Of a DNA stretch of 25,813 nt, positions 49-25,738 are shown piece by piece. Numbering within the stretch: position 1 is the first letter of the stretch; each line of letters begins with the position of its first letter. The stretch is taken from the IMG/VR virus record IMGVR_UViG_3300012974_000005, positions 1 to 25,813 of that record. One strand, 5' to 3'. A model generated the notes under the pieces. That model was not told where the DNA came from, made no database searches, and was given only the letters and a program-made list of their open reading frames with translations. A program made the translations under genes and the position numbers. Origin of the DNA: a virus.

Positions 49-123
49 GGGGGATTTTAAATGAATTATAATGAACTCTTAAATAAAATATCTTCACAGA
101 TGTTGTCTGCGGCAGGCAAAGCC
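1..123. repeat. Terminal direct repeat copy 1, identical to 25691..25813; overlap from circular assembly
   Basis: Bases 1-123 (aaagcagagcgagaagaagt...gcggcaggcaaagcc) recur exactly at 25691-25813. The repeat lies inside coding sequence (chaperone 3' end plus start of the 56-aa ORF). Confidence 0.95.
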
Positions 124-231
124 AGTGGCTCCCGCACTACCAATGGCGCAGGATTGACATCAAAAGAAGATAATACCTCTATTATGTTAAATAGAATTGG
201 ACTTGAAGTTCAAAGACAAGGAGGATATTGA
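61..231 (+). CDS. 56-aa protein in the position normally held by the tape measure gene (between chaperone and Dit)
   Basis: ATG 61 sits 7 nt after aaggggg. Translation is MNYNELLNKISSQMLSAAGKASGSRTTNGAGLTSKEDNTSIMLNRIGLEVQRQGGY. The TGA stop overlaps the next ATG (TGATG). Function is inferred from synteny only. Confidence 0.55.
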   Translation: MNYNELLNKISSQMLSAAGKASGSRTTNGAGLTSKEDNTSIMLNRIGLEVQRQGGY

Positions 232-3200
232 TGCTAATTAATGGAATTGAATTAAGTAATTTGGGTGTTTAGTTATTTGACCGTGTATTACGTAGTAATT
301 TAATTGATACCGCACAAGAGTGGTTAGATGGCGACATTCAGCCTACTTTTATTCGCCAGCAAGACCGTTTCAAGACTATTGAATTACAGTTTTTAGTTTT
401 AAGTGCTGATGAAGATGAAGCATTTAGACGCATTAGTAAATTAACTGCTATGCTAAAAAAGGCTACTGTAAAATTTGATGACTTGGACCTTATTTTTGAC
501 GTTAGCATTATTAATGTGGGCGAACCCACTCGTTTGAAGAATGGAAACTTCGTTGTGCCTTATACATTATCCAGTGGATATGCGAAAGGTCAGCGTGAGA
601 TTTATACCACAAACGCTAATATGACTAACTCATTTAAATTGACTGTTGCGTATTATAAAAACTCAACAAATTTATTATCAAGTGAAACTGTTATAATTCG
701 TGCTTCTGCTTTCGATAAAGAAAATCTGGGACTTGCGGATTTGGGAATTGATGTAAATAAATATCAACCTCAATACCATAATACCGGAGTAGCAACTAAT
801 CTAAATGGATTAGACCTAACCTATGAAAACTTACAGAGTTTGAAAGTATTGATTATCAATTATGCGCCTATTTCTTATAATCTTACCGTCAATTATTATT
901 TAGATAATGGCGAAGGCTTATATAATGAAATCCTTAACCGCACTGTCTCCTTTACCCAGACGAGTTTGGAAAATTACCAAACCATCGGCCAGTTAGTCGG
1001 TGTAAAAGATTATCGTCCGGATGGATATAAAGGTAGGGTTTCTTATGACGGCGCTCTTACTGTGGAAGAGTTATTGGCTCACGCACCCATTGGAGTGTTC
1101 TACGATAAGATTGAAACCGAGTTAAGTAAGAATATTTTTATTGCGTATAAAGCAGAAAATGATAATGGAGAATTTGACACTATTCAATCTGTTATCATTA
1201 ATATTAGCGAGACCCAATTCTATGATGGCTTGACTTTGAAAGACATTATTAGTATTGATGGTTATAATCCAAATCCCAGTTATTATAATGCTGGTTATAT
1301 TGATGGGTTCGCTTCTAACACTCTAATCTCTTATGAGACAATGGAGACTGCTTATAGTGTCATTTATACCAAGGCAGTAAATACTGTTTATGTAGAGTAT
1401 TACGCAGGCGTTTATCCTGGTTGGTATAGATTATCTACTGCTACATTACAGACAAAGCATTTAGACAGATATGATGAAAGTTTCAATATTCTAACTGATT
1501 TAGGGTTAGATTTGAATAAGTATCATACTGCTCCTTATTACGATGGTGCTTTATATAATCAAGACATTTATCAGACTTATGATGACGTGCTAAATGCCGG
1601 TGTTCTACAAGTCTATTACAATGCTATTGATTATCCTATCACCGTCAATTATTACACCGGAGACCTAACCGCAACTCCTATTACTGAAATAGTAAATATC
1701 AATGCGTTAATGTTCTTCGGCAATCCAATCTTGAGCGACATTATTCCTATTCTGGCACATCGTCCAGAAGGCTATCAATTTAGTGAGAACTTCTCTTATA
1801 ATGGCGAAGTCAGTCTGGAGGCACTGACCCAGGCTTCTCCTATTATGATTGTCTATGAAGAAATTGAAGTAATGCGTTCAAAGAACATCATCGTCCGCTA
1901 TAAGCAAGAGTTATCATCCGCGTATGCTACAATCACAACTAATTTAATTACTGTTAATGAAGCAGATGTGATTGGCGGAGTCCGCCTGAAGGATGTTATT
2001 AGTTTGGATGCTTATCGTCCTGAATATTACGATAGTGGTATTATTGATGGCGCAAGTTCCACTGCTCTAATGACTTTTGACTCTCTTGGCTCATCTTATG
2101 ATGTATTGTATGTCGCAAAGACTTACACAACGCCAGTTCGCTATTATATTGACGAGATTGATGATTTACACTGGATTGGTAGTGCTTCAATTGCTTATAA
2201 GGTAATTGACTTTGAAACTACAACTACTCTATTCGACTTTGGCTTGAATTTGAATGCCTATAAGCCTTCTTATGCGGGCGACGGCGTTCTACAATATACT
2301 GGCCCAGTCAATTTTGCTGCTCTATTGGAATTACAGTCTATTGATATTCTATATCTAACAGAGACTACTCCTCCAGATGATGAAGAAATTGATTATCCAC
2401 ATCGTTTCTTATTCTTACAGCATAATGATTTAGGTGCTTACGAATATCTACATCCTGAATGGACTATGAACCACGCATTTATCAATACTGGTGTATCTGC
2501 CGAAGATATGTCTCGTTTGACTGTGGTTATGGAGTGTGCTCGTGTTGATGAGAATGTGCCAATGTATCAAGTAAATGCGGGATACGCTTATTTATTTGGT
2601 AGCACTGGCGGTCAAGGCACTTTCCATATGAGATATAACAACCAGACAATGTATGGTGAAAACTTGACTGGTGTTGATACTTACGAGGCCAAGGCTGGTA
2701 ATTACAGCAATTCTTTAGTGCTGACCGCAGAAAGCGCCGTAGGATTTAGTGAGAATACTGGTATTTATAGTTCTCCTCAAGAGGGTTATAGTCGTGCTAC
2801 TTTCACTTACAGCAACCTTTTGGCTACTGATGGTGCCCCGATGACTTACCCATTATATTTGTTCGCAAATAATAATTATGGTAGTTATTCTAACGGTATC
2901 GCAGGCGTAGGTATTTATAGTTGTCGTATTTATTATAACGACCAATTAGTCCGTGATTTTATTCCCGTTCAGTTCTATGATAAGATTGGTGATTTAGTCG
3001 CACCAAGCAACTGCTTATATGATAAGATTACCAAGACTTTCTTCGAAGACGGCTCTGGTTAGAACAGTTTCAATATCAGAGACGATGAGCGTTATGAAGA
3101 TGACAACTTACAACATCAAATCGGTCATTGCTATGTAAATTACTACAAGGGCACTGATTTTATGAAGACCATCGCTATTTATTTCCGTGGAGATGAATTC

Positions 3201-6200
3201 GATGATGGCGAATTTGATTTATATGAGCGTTTCGCAGTTGATGAAAATCAACCTCAATATACTTTCTCTGGTGAAATTAAGCACGTTGAAAATATTGTTG
3301 TATCTTTCAATGGCTTAAATAATAAGACCTTTGATGTCTATTATGAGCCAATTGAAACTCAGATTGTCGCCAACTATTATAAGGTTGAAGACAATGGTAA
3401 TAAGACTTTATTAGCAAGTGAAACAATCGCACTGAAAGAGAAAGACTTCTATCAGGTTCCTACTTTTGGCGATTTAGTTCGTCTAAATAAATATAAGCCT
3501 GATGGATATGAAACTAATTTCAAATATACTGGTAGCAAGGTATCTTTGGCTCGTGTTGTTGAGGGTTCTCCATACAACATTGAATATACAAAGATGACCG
3601 AAGATAAAATTCCATATTCTACTACTATTAGATATATTAAAAAAGTCTATGGTGTCCGTGAATATGAAACTATCGGCACTAAAGTATTGACATTAGACCA
3701 GAGCGATTTCCGCGATGGTGAATATATTGATTGGTATATTGATAAGAATCTGATGAAACCTGACAGATTCTATAAAGATGGCACAACTTATCAATGGTAT
3801 GAGATGGATGAGCGTCTAAACAAGCCAGAAGACTTGAAAGAGTCTTACACTATTATGTATGCTCCTGAACGTCAGTATTTAGACGTTAATTATTATACTG
3901 ATGAAGTAGATGAAGAAAACTACATCGCAGGTATGACTTGGAGTCTGGCAATTGATGAGTTAGACCCTCGCTTAACTTATAGTATCGTTGATATCTTCCC
4001 CAATGAATATATCAATAAGTTCAAACCCGTTATTTGTGCGGGCGGTGAATTACAAAACGCAACTACTCAATATACATTTGAAAGCCTGGTTGATTTCGGC
4101 CACGTTGATATTGTATATGAAACTATTGAAGAGCCTAATGACCCAACTGAAGCATATTACGAAAGAAAAGTTTTAGGTTTCGGTCATTTCAGCCAAAGTA
4201 TTCCTGCCGGTGAAGGCGGCTTAGATAGTGATGGAATTATGAACGGAGGAACCATCCCTTATATTGACCTTGGCTACACTCCAAAAGAGTTGAAGCGTTT
4301 AAAGGTTGAAATCAAGGCAGTCGGTCAGAGCGCTGGCTTCCTCGCAAAGAATGGTATTGTAAATGGTGGTTTCCAGGATACTTCTTATTCCAACTTCTTT
4401 GGTTATGTAGTCCCTCGTGATTATCGTCTATTGGGAACTATGCTCCAAGATTTGCCAGACGCCGATGAAATCGTATTAGATGATTTTTATTCTGTAAAGA
4501 TTAGCGACCAGCAAAAGGGACACTTCGCTGTGCGTCCTCGTGTGGCTATCGCTTCTGGATTTGTATATTCTGCTGAAGGCCCACAGTCTCTTGACGGACA
4601 ATTATGGTATTCTGCTTCGGCTGCGGCTGGTGTAATTCCAGGCCAACCCCGAGAATTATATACTGGATATAATTATAAATTCCGTAATGGTTATGCGACC
4701 ATTTTGGATGAAAACTATGAAGAAATTGACTGCTTCCGTGAATATGGCGGTTCTTATGAAACTCGCTATAAAAAAGATGGTTCTACATCTTTGGTAAATT
4801 GGGTCGTGAATAATGAGCGTGTCTCTGGTATTGGTGAAAATTATCTGCCTTTGGCTAATCCAACTACTATTATTATGGATGCTTATAATCATTACCTATT
4901 AACCTATACCGAGGAAGACAGCAATAACGCAATGGCTACTTACTTTGAAGATGTTGATAATGATATCTTTGAAGCACGATTACAGCCACGAGGCTCTCTA
5001 ACTTTATTCCGCACTCGTAATCCATTAGACGGCAATATTAATATTATGCCTATCAATCATATTACCTGTGCTTCTACAAGTGATACAGGCAAACTGTCTT
5101 TAGATGGAAAAACTAATCCATATTTAGGCTCCGCAGGTTCTGTCGAAGTAGAAGTATTGGTTCAGGTTGGTATTGATGCCAATGGCGCACCTATCTTCCA
5201 GACTCAAAAGAAGCAATTGAATATTAAATATGTTGATTTTGAAGTCCCCGTATTTACTTCTCTTGAGGCTTGTGCTATTTGGGGAGTAAAGATTTGGGAT
5301 AGAGGTCGCCTGGTTCGTGATTTGATTCCTGTCGCAGAAGGCGATAAGGTTTATGATTATACTATGCCTGCGAATGGTTTGTTTGACCTGATTACTGAAA
5401 TCTTCTTTGGTAATTCTAATGAGGGTGGCGAGTATAAGCAAGAAGGCTACTTTACCGTGAAAGAAGGACATCTACAGCAAGATGTTAAGACTGTAAAAAT
5501 CTTACCAGAAGAGGTAAAGCCTTTGTGGGTTATTTTAGACCCAGGTTATTATGGTAAAATGACGATGAATTATTATGATTACGATTATAGTTTTATCAAT
5601 AGTCAGTTTATCAATGTCCCAACCTGGTATAGTAAGAGCAATACCACTAAGGCAGAAATCTTAGGTTATAATGACTATAAACCTGATGACTTCCATTTAG
5701 ATGGACTTTTGGATTTAGGCGATGGCGCTGACAGTCCAATTGATGATTTGACTTTATATGAAATCTGGCAGATGAACTCTGCTAATGTTTTTTATAAATT
5801 GAGAACATTTACAAAGACTGTTGTTTATTATCAAGGCAACTATCGTGTAGGTTCAAAAGATATTTTCTACTCTTTGGCAGATATTGAAAATGCTCTAACA
5901 ATGGATGATTTAGGCATTGATGTTGATTTGTATTGGACCGAAGACTTCGCTCACGGACGCATTGTGTTTGATGAGAGTATCATTGCTTCTTCTAATATTC
6001 AGAACTTCATTGACGCACCCTCTCCAATTGTTGTATATGACAAGTTGAGCCAAGAGGAAGCACCTAACCTGTTCTATGTTGAATATTACAGAGGCGGTGC
6101 GAGCGACGACACTCTAATTACATTAGACCCTGATAATCCTAATTATTTAGACTGTGAATTAGATGGCGTTGTATTGAATCCTAATGGTGCGATTAAATAT

Positions 6201-9026
6201 TATAATCACTATCACTCTGCCCTATATGAGGATGAAAAGTTTGATTACTTCATTCCTTACCAGGTAAAAGTGTTAGACCGCTACACTGGTATTCATCGTG
6301 GTCCCGCACGTAGATTCCCAACTCTCGCATTGATTGTTGATAAAGATATTTACACAATCATTGAAGAGCGTAATGGTTGGGGTCGTTTGAAAGAATACCC
6401 TGTCGGTTGGATTATGTTATCTGCGACCGAGCCTATGACTGGCCCAGGACAGAATCCTGATTATGACGCGCCCGGCACAGAGGATACTGCTACACTACCT
6501 TTTGGAAGTGAAGTTCATATCAGTAAATTAACTATTGATAGATTGTGGTGTTATGTGCCAGAAGTAGAAAGTTGGATTAAGGCAGAAGATGTTTCTTATA
6601 ATCAGTCAGGTAAGTTATATAACGCACTTGATATTGATGTAATTCATCTTGATGAATTAGACTTCTCTACTATTACTTCTCTTGATGGAGTAGGTATCTA
6701 CCCACAAAAGAGATTATTATATTTCCACGACCGCGAAGACTATGTATATGACGGCGAATATACTTATGATGCGTTCTCCGCACTTCACGAATTAGAATTC
6801 GTATATCCTGAAACCATTTATAGTTATAATTGTATTTATTACAAAGATAACCTGGGCGAATGGTGGGAAGGCGAAGTAATTACCGAAGGCTCTGCCAATG
6901 GTATTGGAAGTAGTAGCAGTGATTGTGGTCGTATTTATGAACGCCCATCCACAAATAGCACTCGTCTTGAATACTTTATGAAAAATCATACGGGTTCGCT
7001 GATTAGTGCGAAGTTTAATAGTGGTGGATATGAATGGTATAAAATCCGTTATGTATATTCTTCTACTAAGACTTATGAAGGCTATATTAGAGCAGACCAA
7101 TTAACTAATATTGTTGAGCCTGAAACCAATGGCGTATATCACAATAATGAGTTAGGTCGTGCGTCCTTCACTTGTTCTCTTGGAGATTGGAACCCTGACT
7201 GGGATGTTTTCATTGCGTCCTCTTGGCGGGTTGATGAAAATGGTAGGGAAATTAACCCTGACCTATATCGTGATACTGAATTGACTTTGACTTGGGATTA
7301 TTTCGGATTTGAACGTAATTTATTTAAACCCGAGGGTTATTATGATGGTATCTACCTATGGAACCCACGCACTTGGGGCCGTGGAGATGTCAATTTCACA
7401 TTCCGTGAATTAATCCGCGTCGGCACTCAATATGTATTATATCCAACCATCCCAATTGATATGTATAAGATTTTCAATAAGACAAATACAATTACTTTAT
7501 CAAGTGGTATTGACCGCTTCCAGTTAAATAATATCGCTTATCCAGAAGACACTACTCCAAGTGATTTTTACGATATAAATATTGTATTTGACCCTTATAA
7601 AGCAAGTAATTATAATATTGGTGGAGAAATGGTTTATACTCCAGACGCCGGCTATTCCCCCGTCATTATGAGAAATGGATTACAATATTATCCTTCAAGA
7701 GGCGTCGGCGGTAGTGTTGGCGGTGTCATTACTCACTGGTCTATGACTTATACCAGCGGTAATCATCATACTACTTACAGTTGGAAAGATGTATTAACTA
7801 CTTCTAAATATTTGAAGAGTTTAGTATATCAAGAGCCAGGTGATTATTTCACTTTCAATCTATCCAACAAGCGTAAAGGCAATTCTTATGTGTTTGGTAA
7901 GGGTAATTATTTATCTGGTTTAGCCGATGAGTTTTACCTGGCTGATGGCACGAAAGTAATTGATAGCACTAATTTAGAAGGTAATTACGCATTTACTGCG
8001 TTTGACGACCATTACACTGAAACCAAAGGTGGTAAAGGTTGGAGTGGTGGAGCAGAATATCAACACACAACGGTTGTAAGCAGTAATTTTGCTCCTATTT
8101 CAGTTTATTCCAATGCCCTGGGCTCCGCGATGAGTATCGCTACCTATGAGAACTTCTTATTACAGAGATACTGGGTGCCTGTCCCAAAGGGCTTCTGGTA
8201 TAAATGGAATGGAGAGGATTTACGTATCCCTGAAAATGGATGGTTTGACTTGATGACAGGCCACTTTACTAAGTCTCCAGACAGTAAGATTTATTTGTAT
8301 AAACAAACTAACGGAGAAGACATTGGATATGATTATTTTGATAATTGGTTCTATAATACCAGTGAAATTGATTATATCGTTCAAGTGCCCGCAGAAACTG
8401 CGACTTATGAAGAGCCTGATGCTTACGCATTAGGTATCCGTTCCCTTGCTCCTGGATTAGTATTCCCTGTTTCTAAATTGACTGCTGATATTGATAACCG
8501 AGTAATTGGTGAATGGTATTTCAGTTGCGACCAGTGGCTACAATCTTCCAAGGCTTCTATTCACGCCGGCACATTTGATAGAACTAAATTAACTAAATTA
8601 CAACAGTCTTTCTGCTTGGTAAAGCCTGCGGATAAGAATGAAAAGTATTATGTTTATTTAGACCCATCTGCGGTTGCCACAGTTGGTGAAGCCAGTCAGG
8701 CTGTATATGGTTCTGCCTATGAAGATATCGCATTCTATAATTACGTTGATACGAATGGTAATAAGTTCTATTTTGATGGCGCCTATTGGGTCCCTGAAAA
8801 ATACACTTCTTTCAATACTACTGAATGGAATAAGAACTATGCTGTCATCCCTGATAATTTACCATTCTATTCTTTACCTATTGAAGATAATGCTTATGTA
8901 GCAGGTAATTACCATTACGGCGAACGTATTACTGTTCCTTATGTAGCAACTCAAGACTCTGGATGGGGCTATACCGGCATTGGCTGGATTAGAATTAATA
9001 CAGGAACTGTAAGTGAGATTTTGTAA
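231..9026 (+). CDS. Giant (2,931 aa) distal-tail-protein (Dit)-like adhesin, read through TAG 270-272 and TAG 3060-3062
   Basis: ATG 231 (RBS aaggagga 218-225), ORF 450..3062 and ORF 3162..9026 share one frame. The only interruptions are two TAGs. The repeat module ...GHCYVNYYKGTDF starts upstream of the ATG at 3162, so a 3162 start would truncate a domain. The N-terminus MLINGIELSNLGV(TAG)LFDRV...KATVKFDDLDLIFDV fits the Dit/Sipho_tail N-domain pattern. It is followed by at least 14 modules of about 82 aa (xVxYY...KYKPDGY), three jelly-roll-like modules ending LVRDxIPV...LxDxIT..FF, and SH3b-like segments. It ends TAA TAA. Confidence 0.8.
630..2365 (+). repeat. Seven tandem ~82-aa domain repeats with a 3-module super-period (A-B-C-A-B-C-A) inside the giant protein
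   Basis: B modules: ISYNLTVNYYLDNGEG...DYRPDGYKGRVSYDG versus DYPITVNYYTGDL...AHRPEGYQFSENFSYNG. C modules: KNIFIAYKAENDNG...LKDIISIDGYNPNPSYYNAGYIDG versus KNIIVRYKQELSS...LKDVISLDAYRPEYYDSGIIDG. A modules: LGIDVNKYQPQYHNTG, LGLDLNKYHTAPYYDG, FGLNLNAYKPSYAGDG. Confidence 0.8.
3100..4135 (+). repeat. Second array of four related ~85-aa modules inside the giant protein
   Basis: The motifs recur: CYVNYYKGTDF; IVANYYKVEDNGNK...KYKPDGYETNFKYTG; TTIRYIKKVYG...MKPDRFYKDG; YLDVNYYTDEVDEE...KFKPVICAGG. Boundaries are approximate. Confidence 0.65.
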
Positions 9027-9044
9027 TAAAGGAGAATAAGACCT

Positions 9045-9401
9045 ATGGATAATACTCAATATTACCCAATCGTGTTTGATGGTGAGGGCAAAAGTTTCGT
9101 TGTTATCAACAACGGAACTGCCCCTGCTCCTTGTATCCTAACAATTATCCCAAAGGTTGATTTCTTAAAACTGGTGGTGGAGGGTCTCACCGAGACCCCC
9201 ATCACTTTCACTGGACTAAAAGCAAATCAGGCCTTGGTAATTGATGGAGAGAACCGAGAAGTATCTGTTGATGGAGTGAGTGCTTTCGCATCTTATGATG
9301 CCTGGGAGTTTCCTCGCTTACTACCTGGAACAAATCAAATTATGATTGAAAATGGCACTTCTGCTTCAATTTCAATTGAATACAGTGCTAATTATATCTA
9401 A
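9045..9401 (+). CDS. Dit C-terminal (galectin-like) domain encoded as a separate 118-aa protein
   Basis: RBS aaaggag. FVVINNGTAPAPCILTIIP...ALVIDGENREVSVDG...FPRLLPGTNQIMIENG...ISIEYSANYI matches the C-terminal pattern of siphophage tail (Dit) family proteins (f.v.N.Gt.p.P.i.i...l.iD....v...g.n...f..L.pG.N.i). Assigned from memory of the family. Confidence 0.6.
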   Translation: MDNTQYYPIVFDGEGKSFVVINNGTAPAPCILTIIPKVDFLKLVVEGLTETPITFTGLKANQALVIDGENREVSVDGVSAFASYDAWEFPRLLPGTNQIMIENGTSASISIEYSANYI

Positions 9402-9415
9402 CTGGAGGCTAAACA

Positions 9416-10444
9416 ATGATTAAGATTTATGATAGTAATCATAACTTTTTAAAATTGTTGCCTTCTTGTAGAAATATTTATACAACGGAAATGTTAAGCA
9501 CGGGGTTAAAAACCCTGTGCTTCCAAGTTCCTTGTAAAGATGAGTTCTTTGAAATTATCCAAGAGGAGAATTATGTGGAAACCGCAGACTACTCTTACGT
9601 TATAAAAGAACTCATTTTAGAAGACAACGATTTTATGGAAGTTCGTTGCTCTGCGAATATAGAACAATTAACCGGGCGTGTCTTCCAAGTGTTTGACTGC
9701 TTACAGATGAATTTAGAGCAAGCCTACGAGTATTGTTTATCCAAGAGTGATTGGAAATTGGACTATCAAAGCGAAGACCGCAGTATAGCAACTTATCAAT
9801 TACCTTACACTACTGGATATGAAATGATAAAGTAGATTGCTACAGATTACGGGCAGGAATTGTGGTTTGATACCAAGCATAAAGTTTTGCGCGTATATGA
9901 TTCAATGGGTGCCGAGTTTGGTGCTTATTTCTCTAATGAGTTGAATTTGAAGCGCTTAACAAAATAGTCTTCTACTTATGATTATGCTACCGTTATTTTA
10001 CCTCTTGGTAAAAATGGTCTGACTATTACCAATGTTAATGGTGGCAAAGATTATTTAGAAGATTATACTTATACAAATAAGACAATTGAAAAGTATTTTA
10101 TTGATGAAGATATTGATGTTGCTGAAATCTTGAAAATGAAAGCAGAGGAATATTTAGCCAATGCTTGCGTGCCGAGAGCCAGTTATAAACTTCAATTAGC
10201 AAGCCTGGGTGATGGTGTAGGCCTGGGTGATGTTATTTATCTTGTTGATAAAATCAAACGAATTAAGTAGAAGCAAAGAGTCGTAAAGATTGTGCGCTAT
10301 CTACGAGAACCTGAACGCAGTAGCGTAGAAATCTCTAATTTACAGATTGACTTCGCTCGCACATTTATTGAGGGTTAGAAAGAAGTAAAAAAAGAAATTG
10401 CTTATTTGAGAAAGTTATATAAAGAATTGGCTGACGCAGAATAA
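9416..10444 (+). CDS. Tail-associated lysin/tip protein (Tal) N-terminal-type protein, 342 aa, four in-frame TAGs
   Basis: RBS ggagg. MIKIYDSNHNFLKLLP...LKTLCFQVP...YSYVIKE fits the phage minor structural protein N-terminal / Prophage_tail pattern. The frame continues through TAG 9833, 9965, 10268 and 10376 (...ELWFDTKHKVLRVYD..., ...ATVILPLGKNGLTI...) to TAA 10442-10444. Confidence 0.75.
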
Positions 10445-10470
10445 CCGTTCGTCAGGACAAAATTGTTCCA

Positions 10471-10498
10471 TTGATTTCACTTATTTTTTATGTATAGT
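10471..10498 (+). promoter_or_regulatory. Candidate sigma-A promoter (TTGATT, 16-nt spacer, TATAGT)
   Basis: -35 TTGATT at 10471-10476 and -10 TATAGT at 10493-10498, in the AT-rich gap after the tail genes. Confidence 0.4.
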
Positions 10499-10539
10499 GA
10501 GGGCAAAATTTCTTTATTATGTGTATTATGGATTATCAT

Positions 10540-10568
10540 TTGATTTTTTTTAAAAAAAATGATATAAT
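10540..10568 (+). promoter_or_regulatory. Near-consensus early promoter with extended -10 (TTGATT, 17 nt, TGaTATAAT)
   Basis: -35 TTGATT at 10540-10545, a 17-nt spacer containing a T8A8 palindrome, TG at 10560-10561, and TATAAT at 10563-10568. It lies about 40 nt upstream of the RBS of the first early gene. Confidence 0.7.
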
Positions 10569-10608
10569 ATATACATAAAGAATAAGAAAAGAAAAAGGAG
10601 CAAAAATT

Positions 10609-10953
10609 ATGACTAATTTCGTTGAAATGAATTACTCTTATAGTTTGGTTAAGGAAGGCACAAGTGAAAAGGTTATGTTCGTATTTGAACGTCTGATGGA
10701 GGTTGTAGAAGTGCCTCACGGTATTGAGGTTGATAATCTCTATTACTCTACTAATTTTACTGAAATGCTGGGTGGCACAATCCCCGCGCCTATCCTAACA
10801 GCACTCGTTAATCGTGGTATGCTTCATTGTGATGGTAAGGTGAATGGCAAGAATACCTATATGATTACCAAAGAAATCTATGATTATTATAAGAATACTT
10901 ATAAGCCTGGTTTAGATAAGCACGAGGAGCGTATGAACGCAAAGGAGAACTAA
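10609..10953 (+). CDS. Early hypothetical protein (114 aa)
   Basis: RBS aaaaaggag, intact ORF with no TAG. The segment ILTALVNRGMLHCDGK resembles FTALVSDGRLERDK in the next gene, suggesting a weak paralogue or a winged-helix-like domain. Confidence 0.6.
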   Translation: MTNFVEMNYSYSLVKEGTSEKVMFVFERLMEVVEVPHGIEVDNLYYSTNFTEMLGGTIPAPILTALVNRGMLHCDGKVNGKNTYMITKEIYDYYKNTYKPGLDKHEERMNAKEN

Positions 10954-10954
10954 T

Positions 10955-11374
10955 ATGAAAAACGAACTCTATAAGGCTATCAAGACTTACTGCGACGAGA
11001 ACCATTGTTGGAAAGCGCTCAACACTGTAAGTGATTGGAATGCGGTTCTGAATACTTCTTACTCTGCGGCGACCTTCACTGCGTTGGTAAGTGATGGACG
11101 TCTTGAAAGAGATAAGCAATATCGTGAGAAGAGTTATTCTTATCGGCTGGCTCCTACTCCCGAACAACTTCAGAAGCAAGCAGAAGCCAAAAGACAAAAC
11201 GAAATTGAGAGCGCTAAGCGGACAGTTGAACGCTACGATGAGCGAGTGGCTCATATTAAGGAGCGTTATGAAGAACTCATTGCTGAGGCGGAACGCTATT
11301 TGAAAGAAAGAATGGCATTCATTGAAGAGGACACAGCCAAAGCGAAGGAACTCTTAAAACAAGAGGGAGTATAA
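10955..11374 (+). CDS. Early hypothetical protein with a charged coiled-coil-like C-terminus (139 aa)
   Basis: RBS aaaggag, tightly coupled to the upstream gene (TAATATG). The C-terminal half is rich in E/K/R heptad-like sequence. Confidence 0.6.
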   Translation: MKNELYKAIKTYCDENHCWKALNTVSDWNAVLNTSYSAATFTALVSDGRLERDKQYREKSYSYRLAPTPEQLQKQAEAKRQNEIESAKRTVERYDERVAHIKERYEELIAEAERYLKERMAFIEEDTAKAKELLKQEGV

Positions 11375-11375
11375 T

Positions 11376-11576
11376 ATGAAGTTGAAATCACAAATGGAAA
11401 AGCAAAGGGCTTACGCAATGCGTAAGCGCAATGAAGCCAAAAAGATTGGCGATGAAAAGCAAGAGTGGTATTGGCTTGGTGTTATTCACTCTATGAACTG
11501 GGCTCCTGGCTCTCGCGATGAGTGGAAGTATCTTGATGACGAAGTAATGTCAAAAGATGAAAAATTTGATTGGTAA
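11376..11576 (+). CDS. Early hypothetical protein (66 aa)
   Basis: RBS gagggag and an ATG 2 nt after the upstream stop. No recognisable motif. Confidence 0.5.
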   Translation: MKLKSQMEKQRAYAMRKRNEAKKIGDEKQEWYWLGVIHSMNWAPGSRDEWKYLDDEVMSKDEKFDW

Positions 11577-11633
11577 AGAATTGGAGGCTCGGATTTACGA
11601 GCCCTCAAAATAAAATATATGACTTCTCTAAAA

Positions 11634-11666
11634 GGGGGCTCAACGAGTTTGAGCCTCCAATTTTTA
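11634..11666 (+). terminator. Rho-independent terminator-like hairpin
   Basis: gggggctcaa (11634-11643) pairs with ttgagcctcc (11649-11658), giving 10 bp with one G-U. The loop is cgagt and is followed by aattttta. Confidence 0.6.
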
Positions 11667-11686
11667 TACCCAAAAAGGAGACCGGT

Positions 11687-11875
11687 ATGAGAGAAATTAT
11701 TCAAAACTTAAATAAAGCAACTCTCGCCGAGGCAACGGGCATTTCTTATAGTAGATTAAGAAAGTTCTCAACCGGACTTGTAGCAAACCTGACGCCAGAA
11801 GAGCGAGAGAAAATTTATAAATATTTATTGTCTATCGCAGACAAATTTAAAAATGAACTAAAAGGAGATATTTGA
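11687..11875 (+). CDS. Small helix-turn-helix DNA-binding protein (62 aa)
   Basis: RBS aaaaaggag 8 nt upstream of ATG 11687. ATLAEATGISYSRLRKFSTG looks like an HTH. The longer track ORF from 11570 would run through the terminator hairpins. Confidence 0.55.
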   Translation: MREIIQNLNKATLAEATGISYSRLRKFSTGLVANLTPEEREKIYKYLLSIADKFKNELKGDI

Positions 11876-11878
11876 ACT

Positions 11879-12466
11879 ATGGAAAAATATACTACACCAG
11901 AACCAATTTTACCCGCACCAGGAGAAGAAGAAGTGTGGAAGACGCATCCTGTTTATATTGAGTATGAGGTTTCTACTTTTGGCAATGTTCGTCGTAAGAG
12001 CAGTCAATATATGATGACTCCTACTGTAAATGGCAGAGGCTACTTAACCGTTCATTTACGTGCGGGCATTGAAGGTAAAAATGGTAAATATTGTCGCATT
12101 CATAAATTAGTGGCTGATACTTTTTTGGGGGAGGCCCCAGGCCCAGAATATGAGTGCGACCATAAAGACCGCAATCGTTAGAATAACTACGTCGGGAACC
12201 TTCGTTATACAACACATCCCGAAAATGTTGCCAATTGTCGCAAACGTCGTAAATACATTTTTATGGACCGTCCTGCGATTGTTCTTTTGGATAAAAAGAC
12301 TCACGAACCAATTCGTGAATTTCAAAATTTGCGAGAGATTGTAGAAGAGTTGGGGTTGAGCCCTGCCAGTGTGCGAGACAATATTCACGGTTTTAAGCCA
12401 CCATTTAGAATTGGCTATTTTATGACAAAATCGGAATATTTAGAAAAATTGAAGGGAAAAATTTGA
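11879..12466 (+). CDS. HNH homing endonuclease (NUMOD4 + HNH_3 type), one in-frame TAG at 12179-12181
   Basis: EEVWKTHPVYIEYEVSTFGNVRR (NUMOD4-like), RIHKLVADTFLG, and CDHKDRNR(TAG)NNYVGNLRYTTHPEN (HNH_3 H-N-N signature spanning the TAG). The C-terminal LREIVEELGLSPASVRDNI is HTH-like. ORFs 11879..12181 and 12263..12466 are in the same frame. Confidence 0.8.
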
Positions 12467-15683: not shown

Positions 15684-17051
15684 TTGTTTAGTTTAAATAA
15701 TATTGAAGAATTAACAGATAGAGTAATTCGCAGAATTGTAGAGAACCATCGTAGTTCAGTGCTTCCTCGCTTACAGAACTTGGAGAACTACTACAACGCG
15801 AAGAATGTTATTAATAACAGAATTATGAAAGATAAATCTAAACCTAATAACAAAATCGCAAATGCTTATGCGAGTTATATTACTGATACTTTGGTTGGCT
15901 ATTTTATTGGCGAACCCATTTCTTATACCTCAAATGACGACGTCCTTTTGTAGGATTTAAGTATGATTTTTGAATATAATGACGAGGCTGATGAGAACGC
16001 TGAATTAGCAAAGAATGCTTCTATTTATGGCGTGGCTTATGAGATGTTATATTTGAGCGAAGAGGATAAGATGATTAGATTTAAGGCTCTTAATCCGAAA
16101 GAGATTATCCCTATTTTTGATAAGACTGTGGAGCAGAACCTGATGGCAATCATTCGCTACTACGATGATTATGATGTAGTTGATGATAAGACTTATACAT
16201 TAGTAGAGATTATTGATAACACGATGGTCCGCAGATATAAGATGGATAATTCTTTCTTGCTTCTGGAAGAATACCCTCATTACTTTGGTATGGTGCCTAT
16301 TGCTATTTATAAGAACAATGAGGAAGAGCGAGGCGACTTTGAGGCGGTTATTAGCCTGATTGATGCGTATGATAAGATGGAGTCTGATACTCTAAATGAT
16401 TTTGAATACTTTGTTGATGCTTACTTGGCTTTGTATGGCTTTACCGCAGAACCAGAAGATGTAGCACAGATGAAGGAAAATCGTATCCTACTTATGGATG
16501 AAGGCACCAGTGCTGAATGGCTTATTAAGCAGACCAGCGATACTTATGTTGAGAATATGAAGAACAGATTAGATGCTGATATTCATAAGTTCGCCAAATG
16601 TCCTAATATGGCTGATAAGGAGTTTGCTTCTAATGCTTCTGGCGTGGCTATCAAGTTCAAATTGTTGGGAACAGAAAATCTGGTCTCTATCAAGGAGCGT
16701 AAGTTCAAGCGTGGCTTACAGCAGAGACTGGAACTGATGAGTATGATTAATAGTGTTCTACGCGAAGGTTTTGATTGGCGTGGCATTGATATTATCTTTA
16801 CTCGTAATGTCCCATCCAATGATACTGATATTGCCAATATGGTAAATACTCTACGAGACATCGTTAGTGAAGAAACATTACTGGCTCAAATCCCATTTGT
16901 TGAGGACGTTCAAGATGAGTTAGAGCGTTTGAAGAAAGAACGAGAAGAAAATAAAGAATTAAACCCATTCTTCCAAACAGGATTGTCTTATCAGACAGAG
17001 GCTATGGCTAACGGCACAGAGCAAAAAGATAAAGAGGAGGACGAAGAATAA
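15684..17051 (+). CDS. Portal protein (SPP1 gp6-like), 455 aa, TTG start, one in-frame TAG at 15951-15953
   Basis: RBS aaaggagg. RLQNLENYYNAKNVINNR...KPNNKIANAYASYITDTLVGYFIGEPISY fits the SPP1 gp6 portal pattern. ORF 15684..15953 and ORF 15963..17051 are in the same frame. Confidence 0.85.
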
Positions 17052-17440
17052 TGGAGTTAGAATTATTATTCCAAATTTTTGAGTTGTGTATTATCCCTTT
17101 ATTAGCAGTGCTGACTGGTTATTTAGTTCAGTGGATTAAAGCAAAGACCGCAGAGGCTACTGAAAAGAACCAGCAGGATGTGTTTGATAAATACATCACT
17201 ATGCTGGGTGAAACAATCGCAAAGTGCGTTTCCGCAACTAATCAAACCTATGTTGATGCGCTGAAGAAGGCTGGTTCATTTGATGCCGAGGCCCAGAAGC
17301 ACGCATTTGAAATGACATTGAATGCGGTTATGAATGTTTTAGGTAAGGATGCTATTGAATATCTAACTGCTATTTATGGCGACCTAACCAGTTATTTAAC
17401 TACATTAATTGAGGCCGAGGTAAAGGCACAGAAGGAGTAA
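17051..17440 (+). CDS. Membrane-anchored protein, LL-H-type holin-like (129 aa)
   Basis: A single N-terminal hydrophobic helix (FQIFELCIIPLLAVLTGYLVQWIKAK) is followed by an Ala/Lys/Glu-rich soluble part. This resembles the Holin_LLH family. The position between portal and minor head gene is not a canonical lysis locus. Confidence 0.4.
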   Translation: MELELLFQIFELCIIPLLAVLTGYLVQWIKAKTAEATEKNQQDVFDKYITMLGETIAKCVSATNQTYVDALKKAGSFDAEAQKHAFEMTLNAVMNVLGKDAIEYLTAIYGDLTSYLTTLIEAEVKAQKE

Positions 17441-20516: not shown

Positions 20517-20838
20517 TTATAATGCTGAAACCCAGACTATTTCTATGATTGCGAAAGATACCGGAGATTTCGTAGTTGCTATTGATAATTATTTACTTGC
20601 CGAAGGCGATAAGGTGTTCTTTACTGTGAATGACGCACTTGAAAAAGAGACCGCACTTATCTCTATCGTCGTAAGCGAGTTTGTTGATAATAAAGCAATA
20701 ATTCGCTTGTCTGCGACCGATACTAATTTGGCTCCTGGTAATTATTACTATGACGTTCAGGTAAATACAGCCGATGGCCGTGTTGATACTGTATTAGGTC
20801 CAGCCAAGTTCAAAATCGCAGGAGGAGTGAAGTTCTAA
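20509..20838 (+). CDS. Small beta-sandwich (Ig-like) virion protein, function unknown
   Basis: ATG 20509 lies after ggagg. DKVFFTV...[22 protein letters not shown]...GPAKFKI is the strand pattern typical of phage Ig-like decoration or fibre-base domains. Confidence 0.45.
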
Positions 20839-21785
20839 TGAGTATTGAAGTTTTAAATAAAATGACAGCAGTGCCCGAAGAAACCCCTGTGATTAATGTG
20901 GCTCTTACCAATCCAACTTATCGTGGCCCCAAAGGAGATAAGGGTGATAAAGGCGATAAGGGAGATATTGGTCCTATTGGATTGACTGGTGCTACTGGCC
21001 CACAGGGCATCCAAGGTATTCCTGGCGAGCCTGGCCCGATTGGCCCACAAGGCATTCCTGGTAAAGTTGGACCATAGGGTCCAAAGGGAGATAAAGGAGA
21101 CCAAGGTGAAGTCGGTCCCCAAGGCCCTATCGGACCACGGGGAGAGCCGGGTCCAGAGGGCCCCGCAGGCGAAGGTGCTGATATTGTAAAATTAACAAAT
21201 ACTGATGTCCCTACCCAAGAGCAATGGGAAAAAATGGTAGCGAATTATAATGCTGAGGCTTTAGTCTATCCAATGACAGTAAATGATTAGCCAGTATTGT
21301 CTTTATATGTATCTGGTTCATTGTCATTAGGGGGCACATTAGTATTATTTACTACATCTCCCGCATTCGATTATAATAATTCTATGGACTATTATTTTAA
21401 TTTGACTGACTATTGGTTCCCAATGTCATCAGGCAAGGGACCACAAAAATGCTCTTCCTCTGGCGCAGCCTTTTTAGAAGCCGGAACAATTTCATTAAAG
21501 GGATATAAAACACCCGGCTCAAAAAAGAATATTTATGATGCGTTAAATTATTTAGACACCAACAAAATTGGTAGCGATGCGTTAGTTGCTTCTGGTATGA
21601 GTTATGATAATACTGAAACACAGATAGAAGCAACCACAGTCCAAGATGCGATAGACCATTTATTTGAGACTGCGATTGATGCGACTTATTTAGAAAACTT
21701 GGGCTATCAAACCGAAGCACAGGTTAATGCGTTGATTACTACTGCTCTTGGTAATATTGGCGTAGCCGAGGAAGGAGCGTATTAA
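20838..21785 (+). CDS. Collagen-like-repeat fibre protein (315 aa), two in-frame TAGs
   Basis: There are 28 uninterrupted G-X-Y triplets (20925..21176), including G-P-(TAG) at 21075-21077. ORF 20838..21077 and ORF 21297..21785 share one frame. The second TAG is at 21288-21290. Confidence 0.85.
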
Positions 21786-21787
21786 TT

Positions 21788-22969
21788 ATGAGTAAAGTAT
21801 TTATTGAAGAAACTACTTTAACTAATATTGGCACCGCCATTCGTGAGAAGACCGGAAAAACTGATTTGATTGCTCCTGGCGATATGCCTGCGGAAATTAG
21901 AGGTATTGTATCTGGCGGTGGCTCTGACGATTGTAACGGATTACACATTCCAGAAGAAGCATTAATTATTACTGGTAATTGTGATTATAGATTTTCCCAA
22001 GGTGGTTGGGATTGGTTTATTAATCAAGTGGGCGATAGGGTTACTACCAAAGACATTTTGAGCGCGCCTTCTATGTTCGCATATAGTAAAGTTGAGAATA
22101 TTCCATTTGATTTAAACTTTACACCAAACCTATATAGCAATAGTCTTACTAACATATTTCAATACTCTAAAATAAAGACAGCGCCACAAGTAAAAAATAT
22201 TATAGTAAGAAATATTGATAAAATGTTTCTTTACTGTCAGGAATTAGTGTCTATTCCAGAGAACTTTACAGAGACTTGGGATTGGACTGATATTGATAAT
22301 CAGACAAGTAGTTATACGGGTAATATGAGTCAAATGTTTAGTAATTGTAACAAATTACGACATATTCCAAGAAACTTTATCAATCACGGAAATCCAAGTT
22401 CCAGTTATTCTTATACTGTTCCTTATAATGGCTTTTTAAGTTGTTATGCGTTAGAAGAGATTGAAGATTTATCTTATTCAACCAATACGACTTTGGCTTC
22501 AAATATGTTTTATCACACCGTGGATGGTTGTTGCCGATTGAAAAGATTAACTTTGATAACCCAAGAGGATGGAACCCCTTACACTTGTAGATTAAAAAAT
22601 CAAACTATTGATTTAACAGTTCAAACTGGTAATTTCAAAGGGACTGCGACGGCTTATGTTAATGCGGGTCTGCCAGAAGATACAGTGATTGACAACGAAG
22701 AAAAGTGGCGTGGTTATATTGATGGCACTTATCCAGATGGATGGACCGCAGACGTTGCTTACAACACTTTTGGCGCAACTGCCGTAAAAGAGTTGATTGC
22801 GACTTTACCTGATACTTCTGCTTATTTAGCCACTACTACTGGAACAAATACTTTAAAGTTATTGAAGAACTCCGCAAGCGCCATCCCAGGAGAACATATT
22901 GAAACTAATTTGACAGAAGAAGATATCGCAGTCGCAACCGCAAAGGGTTGGACCGTTAGTTTAGTTTAA
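21788..22969 (+). CDS. Putative receptor-binding protein with BspA-type leucine-rich repeats (LRR_5-like)
   Basis: The N-terminus is TLTNIGTAIREKTGKTDLIAPGDMPAEIRGI, a motif common at the start of gut Firmicutes phage fibre proteins. Repeated units are MFAYSKVENIP, MFLYCQELVSIPENF, MFSNCNKLRHIPRNF and FLSCYALEEIEDL. Confidence 0.6.
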   Translation: MSKVFIEETTLTNIGTAIREKTGKTDLIAPGDMPAEIRGIVSGGGSDDCNGLHIPEEALIITGNCDYRFSQGGWDWFINQVGDRVTTKDILSAPSMFAYSKVENIPFDLNFTPNLYSNSLTNIFQYSKIKTAPQVKNIIVRNIDKMFLYCQELVSIPENFTETWDWTDIDNQTSSYTGNMSQMFSNCNKLRHIPRNFINHGNPSSSYSYTVPYNGFLSCYALEEIEDLSYSTNTTLASNMFYHTVDGCCRLKRLTLITQEDGTPYTCRLKNQTIDLTVQTGNFKGTATAYVNAGLPEDTVIDNEEKWRGYIDGTYPDGWTADVAYNTFGATAVKELIATLPDTSAYLATTTGTNTLKLLKNSASAIPGEHIETNLTEEDIAVATAKGWTVSLV

Positions 22970-22981
22970 GGAGGACAAATA

Positions 22982-23170
22982 ATGATTAGTAAAGATTTTA
23001 TTTTAACCAGATATGATGCTGATATTGGATGCGTATTTGACTGGAAAGAACCTCATTATATTGAAGATGAGAATGGAAATCAAATCCAGGAACATTTATA
23101 CGTGAAGACTTTATTTATTGGTTCTCACGATAGCATTGATAATTATATTGAGGTCGAAGAAGAGGTATAA
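22982..23170 (+). CDS. Small protein (62 aa), paralogue of 24250..24456
   Basis: RBS aaggagg. It shares EHLYVK(T/Y)LF(I/L)GS(H/N)DSIDNY with the 68-aa protein at 24250. Confidence 0.6.
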   Translation: MISKDFILTRYDADIGCVFDWKEPHYIEDENGNQIQEHLYVKTLFIGSHDSIDNYIEVEEEV

Positions 23171-23173
23171 GTT

Positions 23174-23713
23174 ATGGGCTTATATTGTAAAATAAATCTT
23201 GAAAGCGATTGGGGTCTCCCCAATCGCACTCCTGAATTAGGATTACCTATTGATTATACAGAAGCCATTGGGGTTTTTTCAGATACTTTTATGAGACTTA
23301 GTTAGGAAATGGTGCCAGTAGATACTGGTTTTTTAAAAAGTTCTTTAAGAAGTTTCGGAGACGGAATGACAATAGAAGCAGAAGCAACGGCAGATTATGC
23401 TTAGTATGTGGAGTATGGAACTTGGTGTTGTCCTGCTTAGCCATATTTTAATCCAGCAGTTGAATCTGCCAGTGATGCTGCTTTTGGAGTAGCAAAGCAA
23501 ATATATGATAGAGCGATAGCACAAGAGGCTGAAATGGTGAAGCAACAATTTATCGCTGAGGCTTAGAGTAGAGTTGCTGCCGCAGGCCGAGCAATGGGTG
23601 CTGACGCACTTATCGGTGGCATATTCCCTATGCTTGCTATGATGATTATTGGTAGTATTATGACCTTATTCAACGAATTTTTTTCAAGTATTTTTGGTGA
23701 TAATGACGAATAA
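23174..23713 (+). CDS. HK97 gp10-family tail-completion protein with a hydrophobic C-terminal extension, four in-frame TAGs
   Basis: It is missed by the ORF track because of TAG at 23303, 23402, 23438 and 23564. The translation contains MVPVDTGFLKSSL...ADYA(TAG)YVEYGT...PA(TAG)PYFNPA, the gp10-family core. The C-terminus is ALIGGIFPMLAMMIIGSIMTLFNEFF. Confidence 0.7.
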
Positions 23714-24249: not shown

Positions 24250-24456
24250 ATGTTAGGAAGAAGAATGAAATCTTATAAGGCACCCGCAGGTAAAGTATAT
24301 GATTATGCGTTGCCTCGTATAATTACAGTAATAAATGATGCGGGCGAGCCAGAGCAAAGAGAAGAGCATTTATATGTGAAATATTTATTTTTAGGGTCAA
24401 ATGATTCTATCGATAATTATCGTATCGTTGATGACCCAAAAGGAGAACAAAGATGA
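24250..24456 (+). CDS. Small protein (68 aa), paralogue of 22982..23170
   Basis: RBS aaggag. EEHLYVKYLFLGSNDSIDNYRIVDD matches the 22982 protein. Nucleotide similarity is visible at 23090-23150 versus 24364-24425. Confidence 0.6.
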   Translation: MLGRRMKSYKAPAGKVYDYALPRIITVINDAGEPEQREEHLYVKYLFLGSNDSIDNYRIVDDPKGEQR

Positions 24457-25249: not shown

Positions 25250-25738
25250 ATGTTTTTACGAACCAATCGCAAAATCTATGAGTTCAAAATTGGTCTCAAA
25301 GGGTTAATTATGATGCGAGAAAACGCAGATTTAGTGATGGCAAATGATAAGAGATTTCTCTTATATTGCGGATTGGTTAGTAAGCAACCAGCAATTACAT
25401 TTCAAGAAATTGATGAAATCATAGAGGAATGCGACCTATCGAAATTTGACATCAATCAAGACATCCTTTCTATCTATGAAGTTGAGGAGTTATATACGAA
25501 AGCCGTAGGCGAAATCGGTATAACTCCTACCGACTTCTATACGATGACGCCTCACGAAATTGACCTTGCTTATGAGGGATATTTAAGAAGAAAAGAGACT
25601 GAGGCGAACTTAACTAAAATGGCTATTATTACAAGCCAAGATAATGAATTAATACGTTTGACCGAAGATAAAGGTTATTTCGTAGGAAGTAAAGCAGAGC
25701 GAGAAGAAGTGTTTAGATTATTGAATATTGAAGAATAA
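25250..25738 (+). CDS. Tail assembly chaperone (Gp15/TAC-like), 162 aa
   Basis: It lies directly after the tube gene. GITPTDFYTMTPHEIDLAYEGYLRRKE is the motif I associate with the Gp15 / gpT-like chaperone family. Confidence 0.6.
   Translation: MFLRTNRKIYEFKIGLKGLIMMRENADLVMANDKRFLLYCGLVSKQPAITFQEIDEIIEECDLSKFDINQDILSIYEVEELYTKAVGEIGITPTDFYTMTPHEIDLAYEGYLRRKETEANLTKMAIITSQDNELIRLTEDKGYFVGSKAEREEVFRLLNIEE

Follow-up and report, generated by a model that had tools for sequence, protein, structure and literature searches.

Does an 8.8-kb reading frame interrupted twice by TAG encode one protein and, if so, are the two TAGs placed so as to regulate its production? The question is raised by a virus genome held as IMG/VR record IMGVR_UViG_3300012974_000005, of which the whole stretch analysed here, hereafter the window, covers 25,813 nucleotides (nt). 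The window represents a complete phage genome in circular assembly, ~25.69 kb long after subtraction of a 123-nt terminal overlap, with a GC content of 38% and all called genes on the + strand. The original prediction fused an upstream ATG at 231 with two open reading frames (ORFs), 450..3062 and 3162..9026, through TAG into a single 2,931-amino-acid (aa) 'evolved' distal tail protein (Dit) with adhesin character, and regarded both TAGs as strategically positioned. We find that 231–9026 is a single gene encoding a single 2,931-aa protein. The explanation that we favour as a whole, and consider very probable, is one gene in which TAG is read as glutamine (Gln) and whose product is a Dit-ring adhesin with a split Dit.

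ATG 231 and the two ORFs share one reading frame, which between 207 and 9026 contains no TAA or TGA and exactly two TAGs, one at codon 14 and the other at codon 944, as had been noted, with 943 residues ahead of the second. The other two frames of the giant-gene stretch contain 170 and 406 stop codons, so the giant frame is not open by chance. A GGAGG-type motif followed by an MLING start stands at the equivalent place in all nine relatives legible there, and the gene ends on a TAA-TAA pair at 9024–9029 (second TAA, 9027–9029). Neither internal ATG resembles a start: ATG 450 is without a Shine–Dalgarno motif and ATG 3162 has none at working distance. The latter encodes Met978 within a predicted beta-grasp repeat (residues 969–1038, 'VNYYKGTDFMKTIAI'), which bears out the earlier rejection of 3162 as a true start. 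The size of the gene, a third of the genome, had been called extreme, and it does occupy 34% of it. The features at issue are the following:

61..231, + strand: conserved ORF of 56 aa that occupies the usual tape measure slot; no Pfam or PHROG match
218..224, + strand: Shine–Dalgarno motif AAGGAGG, 6 nt upstream of ATG 231
231..9026, + strand: giant tail-tip gene, 2,931 aa, with a predicted Dit ring domain and a giant adhesin-like extension
270..272, + strand: TAG at codon 14, read as Gln from the aligned codons of relatives
3060..3062, + strand: TAG at codon 944, in the linker DGSG-Q-NS, read as Gln from the aligned codons of relatives

The TGA of the 56-aa ORF (229–231) overlaps the giant-gene ATG by 1 nt, which couples the two genes in translation, and an equivalent ORF of 55–56 aa lies immediately 5' of the giant gene in L013–L017, five of the related loci compared below.

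The giant gene shares its use of TAG with much of the genome. When genes are delimited by TAA or TGA, 27 in-frame TAGs are spread over 11 of the 31 genes, among them those for the large terminase (4), portal (1), minor head protein (4), Tal-like protein (4), neck protein (4) and major tail protein (2), and ten genes besides the giant one also need TAG read-through. TAG terminates none of the 31 genes (TAA, 25; TGA, 6), and open-frame coverage of the + strand rises from 79% to 98% once TAG is read through.

What TAG encodes was addressed with 17 related loci (L001–L017; 12 from IMG/VR and 5 from ENA assemblies), which share the gene order of the window, lie on contigs no longer than ~27 kb, most of them ~25 kb, and carry giant ORFs of 2,845–3,025 aa. 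TAG was compared with CAA and CAG in these DNA loci only. The residues opposite giant-gene TAGs in relatives are Gln in 32% of cases, a 10.5-fold enrichment, and the codons most commonly aligned opposite TAG are CAA and CAG. At the two sites of interest, the codons are as follows (codon 14, then codon 944):

Window: TAG, TAG
L013 (94.5% aa identity over the giant gene): TAG, TAG
L014 (80% aa identity): TAG, TAG
L015: TAG, CAG
L016: CAG, TAG
L017: TAG, CAA
L001: CAG, TTA
L002: CAA, TTA
L003: AAG, CAG
L009: AAA, CAA
L012: AAA, AAG
L006: CAG, AAA
L008: CAA, AAA
Other loci, codon 944: AAG in L004 and L010, AAT in L005, ATG in L007

The interchange of TAG, CAG and CAA at codons 14 and 944 among L013–L017 indicates that TAG stands for Gln. 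Loci without TAG, CAG or CAA at codon 14 have AAG or AAA there, and codon 944 encodes Leu, Lys, Met or Asn in more distant relatives. TAA or TGA at codon 944 occurs in no relative aligned, and an independent start for the downstream part, which together with such a stop would have spoken for two genes, was looked for in the relatives and not found. The codon at 3060 in relatives is TAG or a sense codon and never a true stop, a result that favours the fusion and speaks against a switch. Judged from these alignments, TAG is a general sense codon for Gln (genetic code 15) in the window phage, and the predicted peptides that span the two sites are LSNLGVQLFDR (codon 14) and ...FFEDGSGQNSFNIR (codon 944).

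Protein databases bear on continuity more than on the identity of the residue. A word-index search returned 239 homologues of the giant protein, some of the listed clusters holding >100 member sequences. The 120 matches listed are almost all ~2,830–2,970 aa long and derive from contigs of mostly ~25 kb. The FFED...NSFNI junction is kept in 118 of these 120, with position 944 occupied by L (87), Q (18), M (10) or K (3), and the conserved flanks of codon 944 read FFED...NSFNI.DD.RY. Together with the common frame and the conserved start, these continuous homologues substantiate the predicted fusion of ATG 231 and the two ORFs. Q in a database protein was rejected as evidence for Gln, because TAG is rendered as Q in the collection, apparently by a gene caller that knows code 15: protein P0001 has Q at 14 and 944 though its contig, L013, has TAG at both, so a database Q is not proof of CAA or CAG. 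Standard gene callers mis-split the giant gene in this abundant family of ~25-kb phages, and annotation should join the 870-aa and 1,954-aa ORFs.

TAG=Gln recoding in gut phages is already established, and the window phage is another member. Code 15 has been confirmed by metaproteomics in crAss-like phages (PMC9523058), and small gut phage clades of 22–34 kb mix codes 11, 15 and 4 (bioRxiv 10.1101/2021.08.26.457843). As in known code-15 gut phages (crAss-like, Lak, 'Garnet', 'Amethyst' and 'Topaz'; same preprint), in-frame TAGs fall in structural and packaging genes and align with Gln. The window genome is likewise small (published descriptions give averages of 34, 34 and 22 kb for the small code-15 clades), and its family, like known code-15 clades, has close relatives on other codes. 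Garnet and Topaz are temperate and carry integrases, whereas neither an integrase nor an endolysin was detected anywhere in the window genome.

Members of this one family differ widely in coding state. The giant gene is free of TAG in L002, L003 and L009 and in the partial copies of L001 and L008, and it holds 33 TAGs in L005. TAG is altogether absent from L009 and almost absent from L002. The giant gene of L006 (IMGVR_UViG_3300028591_000955, 7847–12286) has eight in-frame TGAs, mainly opposite Trp, as in code 4. The tight family of the window spans three coding states, TAG-free, TAG=Gln and TGA=Trp, which, with no tRNA gene found, sharpens the question of who supplies the suppressor.

The product of the merged frame begins as a Dit. 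By sequence profile and predicted fold, residues 1–~130 of the giant protein are a Dit ring domain. A profile of residues 1–140 run against 1.84 billion representative proteins gave 162 matches, many of them to ~230-aa proteins over their first ~120 residues; among seven such ~230-aa proteins tested, five have PF22768 in the C-terminal half, two of which reach the Pfam cut-off. The AlphaFold 2 (AF2) model of the ring domain has a predicted local distance difference test score (pLDDT) of 70.8 and is low at residues 24–43, where the 'belt' extension of Dits is expected. Its best Foldseek matches are the baseplate entries of TP901-1, p2, NF5 and 80alpha and the monocin tip (probability 1.00, TMq ~0.5). 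Sequence searches of the PDB with the N-domain profile, the 118-aa protein described next and the whole-protein profile returned nothing.

The remainder of a canonical Dit lies on the next gene. The encoded protein of 118 aa matches PF22768, 'Siphovirus-type tail component, C-terminal domain', over the full profile with 38 bits (cut-off 25). A canonical 236-aa Dit, P0139, links the two halves: its residues 4–141 align with the giant N-terminus (39% identity, E 4e-31) and its residues 131–236 with the 118-aa protein (36% identity, E 6e-25). As read from these alignments, the Dit is split, with the ring domain on the giant protein and the C-terminal domain on a separate 118-aa protein. The 118-aa gene has its own Shine–Dalgarno motif and ATG in the window and in six of six relatives examined. 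Read-through into 9045–9401 from the giant gene in a shared frame was rejected, given the intervening TAA-TAA, the gene's own Shine–Dalgarno motif and ATG, and its placement out of frame with the giant gene in six of six relatives examined.

231..620, + strand: Dit N-terminal ring domain, residues 1–~130, predicted from profile, AF2 and Foldseek
9045..9401, + strand: Dit C-terminal-domain gene, 118 aa; PF22768, PHROG 33 Dit
9416..10444, + strand: Tal-like baseplate hub gene, 342 aa; PF06605, PF18994, PHROG tail proteins; four in-frame TAGs

Like siphophage Dits, the giant gene lies just upstream of a Tal-like gene; major tail protein and chaperone-like genes stand before it. The N-terminal ring domain resembles those of the Dits of SPP1, TP901-1, p2, 80alpha and T5 in sequence and fold. 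The departures from ordinary Dits begin beyond it. Ordinary Dits have their peripheral C-terminal domain on one chain with the ring domain; the giant protein carries no such domain (galectin or oligonucleotide/oligosaccharide-binding fold) on its own polypeptide, and in the window phage it is the separate 118-aa protein. The solved Dit chains that it matched have 241–314 aa, and the giant protein is ~10x longer. In an evolved Dit, loops of the galectin domain contain one or two inserted carbohydrate-binding modules (PMC7291167). The giant protein is likewise decorated with what would be host-binding parts, but as a ~2,800-residue C-terminal extension that directly follows the ring domain, and the 118-aa galectin-type domain leaves no room for an insertion. 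The earlier label of an 'evolved Dit' adhesin holds as regards the N-terminal Dit domain and the adhesin-like build and fails as regards the arrangement, the extension coming after the ring domain and the galectin-type domain being a separate gene.

The split, ~2,900-aa Dit-ring adhesin is an architecture not found in the Dit literature searched, and it represents another way to decorate a Dit; no paper combining 'distal tail protein' with 'MucBP' was found in the literature searched. A ring domain that continues into an adhesin arm of ~2,800 aa, and a peripheral domain that is made as a small separate protein, are notable for tail biology. Intermediate forms of ~600–1,050 aa with Flg_new repeats exist, and the size series from canonical 236-aa Dits through ~600–1,050 aa to ~2,900 aa offers a useful case for the growth of tail-tip adhesins.

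One further departure from ordinary Dit loci is that no tape measure gene was found upstream. A gene of tape measure size is absent from the entire genome, and between the 162-aa chaperone-like gene and the giant gene (25250–25738, 61–231) only the 56-aa ORF is present. The same layout occurs in L013–L017, and in a more distant phage (L020) a 679-aa protein with the Dit N-terminal domain is preceded by a 51-aa ORF. How is tail length set in these phages, or is the tail very short?

The extension after the ring domain comprises ~2,800 residues and is made up of 15 beta-grasp repeats, two larger modules and a variable C-terminus:

645..2354, + strand: seven tandem beta-grasp (MucBP/Mub-like) repeats, residues 139–708, predicted from an iterated hidden Markov model (E 1e-14 to 1e-21 per repeat)
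2373..3059, + strand: module A, residues 715–943, highly conserved, ending ...LYDKITKTFFEDGSG
3135..4118, + strand: four beta-grasp repeats, residues 969–1296, the first of which holds the spurious ATG 3162 (Met978)
4131..5435, + strand: module B, residues ~1301–1735, delimited by eye from conserved columns; its end, ...LVRDLIPV...GLFDLITEIFFGNSNEGG, resembles that of module A
5565..9023, + strand: repeats at residues 1779–1936 (two full), 2121–2192 (one) and 2348–2404 (partial), and variable C-terminal region

Residues 947–1125 were modelled by AF2 with pLDDT 80–90, and the fold of the repeats at 139–708 was assigned from these modelled repeats. Foldseek matched residues 947–1125 to YwfG of L. 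lactis (7YL4), the Mub type 2 repeat of L. reuteri (3I57) and an immunoglobulin-binding protein of R. gnavus (7KPJ), with probability 0.77–0.98, and also to polyubiquitin. According to these models, the repeats resemble Mub/MucBP-type adhesin repeats of Gram-positive surface proteins. As in Mub/MucBP adhesins, the repeats are interspersed with larger modules; multi-domain TM-scores are low. Mub/MucBP adhesins are cell-wall-anchored bacterial proteins, whereas the repeats described here sit in a predicted virion protein and have no Pfam family match: Pfam searches of the giant protein gave no match, MucBP included (E <= 0.1), PHROGs gave no usable match, and some homologues show faint SH3_3 (PF08239) matches. 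Module A, run as part of residues 712–1125, has an AF2 pLDDT of ~30 and in Foldseek aligns weakly, with a low TM-score, to the cell-surface protein YwfG. The analogy with bacterial surface proteins leads us to infer an adhesin role for the giant protein.

By analogy with solved Dits, six ring domains would form a tail-tip ring above the Tal-like hub, the six ~2,800-aa arms, one per ring subunit, would bind host surface polymers, and the 118-aa C-terminal domain would presumably dock back onto the ring periphery. The host is probably a Gram-positive member of the Bacillota. The nearest cultured homologues of the large terminase (TerL) belong to Bacillus and Clostridium siphophages (47% identity), neither the giant-gene junction nor TerL, each scanned against 185,579 species genomes, gave a host genome match, and there was no DNA match among GenBank phages.

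Several points weigh against one or another part of this reconstruction. ARAGORN detected no tRNA gene of any kind, suppressor or other, in the window and the 17 related loci, nor did Rfam (E <= 1) detect one in the window plus three of these loci; the tRNA-negative loci include the one with 33 in-frame TAGs in its giant gene. The cultured, standard-code TerL homologues, tried as a means of identifying the residue encoded by TAG, were uninformative. Module A is possibly lectin-like or jelly-roll-like, but its AF2 model did not fold, and the assembly model is a prediction. Finally, the six-genome sub-clade of the window has TAG at codon 14 in five genomes and at codon 944 in four, which makes these the widest-shared of 26 TAG columns, and weak selection may keep both. 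On the first point, a suppressor tRNA is detectable in only 40% of TAG-recoded genomes (bioRxiv 10.1101/2021.08.26.457843); failure to detect one is common in code-15 phages, and in the family of the window it extends to the window and all 17 loci scanned. We infer both the hexameric assembly and the source of the suppressor tRNA.

Are the two TAGs special sites? The sharing of TAG tracks local nucleotide conservation, so inheritance suffices as an explanation: nucleotide identity to the window is 76–99% over codons 1–60 and 65–93% over the whole giant gene, and pairwise Gln-codon identity within the sub-clade is 39–86%. Exceptions occur within the sub-clade at each site, with CAG at codon 14 in L016 and CAG at codon 944 in L015. 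Codon 944 lies within a short, low-pLDDT linker (DGSGQNS, residues 940–946) ahead of a well-predicted module. The earlier placement of the 3060 TAG at a domain boundary fits this linker; the module ahead of it, described earlier as jelly-roll-like, is a candidate for that fold. A domain boundary is a reasonable description of codon 944, and a Gly/Ser linker is equally a place where residue identity is least constrained. The giant gene is also poor in TAG, with 2 TAGs against 82 CAA/CAG compared with 25 against 160 in the rest of the genome (Fisher p = 0.004), or 2.4% of Gln codons against 13–15% elsewhere, and depletion runs in the same direction in seven of eight recoded relatives. With 27 TAGs in 11 genes, drift among TAG, CAG and CAA in relatives and a giant gene depleted of TAG, the claim that the TAGs are strategically placed and form a stoichiometry switch draws no support from the comparison. 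Both TAGs would instead have arisen by CAG-to-TAG changes, synonymous under code 15, and been inherited within the sub-clade, and would not be conserved regulatory sites.

The depletion itself may reflect selection under imperfect suppression of a very long ORF, or recombination with TAG-free relatives. Because it affects the longest gene, it offers a sign, open to testing, that suppression is costly or incomplete.

Two further ideas may be weighed here. In the first, TAG14 would abort translation of the 8.8-kb message until amber suppression is available, a local case of recoding that times late genes. The general hypothesis of timing by recoding is in the literature (bioRxiv 10.1101/2021.08.26.457843), TAG14 is common to most of the sub-clade, and the first TAG of other recoded lineages comes at codon 37 (L007) or 44 (L004, L010 and L012). 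But Gln is frequent near the N-terminus, with 5 among the first 44 residues; the chance of an early TAG, roughly estimated at 0.1–0.8 per lineage, is not small; L016 has its first TAG only at codon 448; the first 60 codons are unusually conserved in nucleotides, so inheritance explains the sharing; and TAGs in the other genes of the window show no 5'-end bias. Nor is there a significant early/late split of TAG use in the window genome, the TAG-free early-region genes totalling 17 Gln codons, with P(no TAG) ~0.09. We consider such an early gate unlikely.

In the second, amber decoding would be supplied in trans, by the host or a co-resident element, and would be incomplete. This would explain the purge of TAG from the giant gene and would give, at TAG944 in the lineage of the window, a minor 943-aa form consisting of ring plus repeats, which would co-assemble into the Dit hexamer and leave fewer full-length arms. 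We hold this to be improbable.

Less probable is a regulated version, in which incomplete or timed amber decoding at a selected TAG 3060 yields a 943-aa short form (ring, seven repeats and module A) beside the 2,931-aa long form and thereby controls how many long arms each Dit hexamer bears. In two-product phage genes such as lambda G/GT, made by a frameshift, and Q-beta A1, made by readthrough, the sites are single, conserved and tuned. A stop inside a long frame could in principle yield a short and a long product here too, but the TAG of the window is a general sense codon and codon 944 varies among relatives. The short inter-module linker and the retention of TAG944 in four of the six sub-clade genomes are in keeping with the idea and, given a TAG-poor giant gene, some termination at 944 would be unavoidable if suppression is imperfect. 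Against it, L015 has CAG and L017 has CAA at 944, where other relatives mostly have non-Gln sense codons; relatives with a TAG-free gene, or with 8–33 TAGs scattered elsewhere, make the same protein; TAG14 lies upstream, so that leakage would mostly give a 13-aa peptide; incomplete suppression would truncate at every TAG of every gene; and no conserved stop or signal was found at 944. Where programmed readthrough would lead one to expect a single conserved stop site, codon 944 is TAG, CAG, CAA, TTA, AAG, AAA, AAT or ATG. We judge this switch very unlikely.

A standard code, with two genes that start at ATG 450 (870 aa) and ATG 3162 (1,954 aa), or with a pseudogene or an assembly error, matches the mechanical output of table-11 ORF calling and has next to no probability, since both internal ATGs lack a ribosome-binding site at working distance, ATG 3162 falls inside a repeat, the same TAGs recur in the independent assemblies L013 and L014, ten further genes including those for TerL and portal would be broken, and the homologues are continuous.

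The rest of the genome adds some minor observations. A holin-like gene (17051–17440; PHROG 13712, E 1e-30) separates the genes for the portal and the minor head protein. Two TAGs occur in a fibre gene with collagen-like (G-X-Y) sequence (20838–21785), which is followed by a gene (21788–22969) for a 393-aa protein with no family match, whose sequence looks by eye like BspA-type leucine-rich repeats; both genes stand between the head-completion and neck genes, and could encode head or neck fibres. Two small paralogous ORFs of 62 and 68 aa (22982–23170 and 24250–24456) share the motif EHLYVK.LF.GS.DSIDNY and lie on either side of the neck and tail-completion genes. The tail-completion (HK97 gp10-like) protein gene itself (23174–23713) has four TAGs, and the C-terminal extension of its product (ALIGGIFPMLAMMIIGSIMTLF) looks hydrophobic by eye, like a membrane span, which would be unusual for the HK97 gp10-like family.

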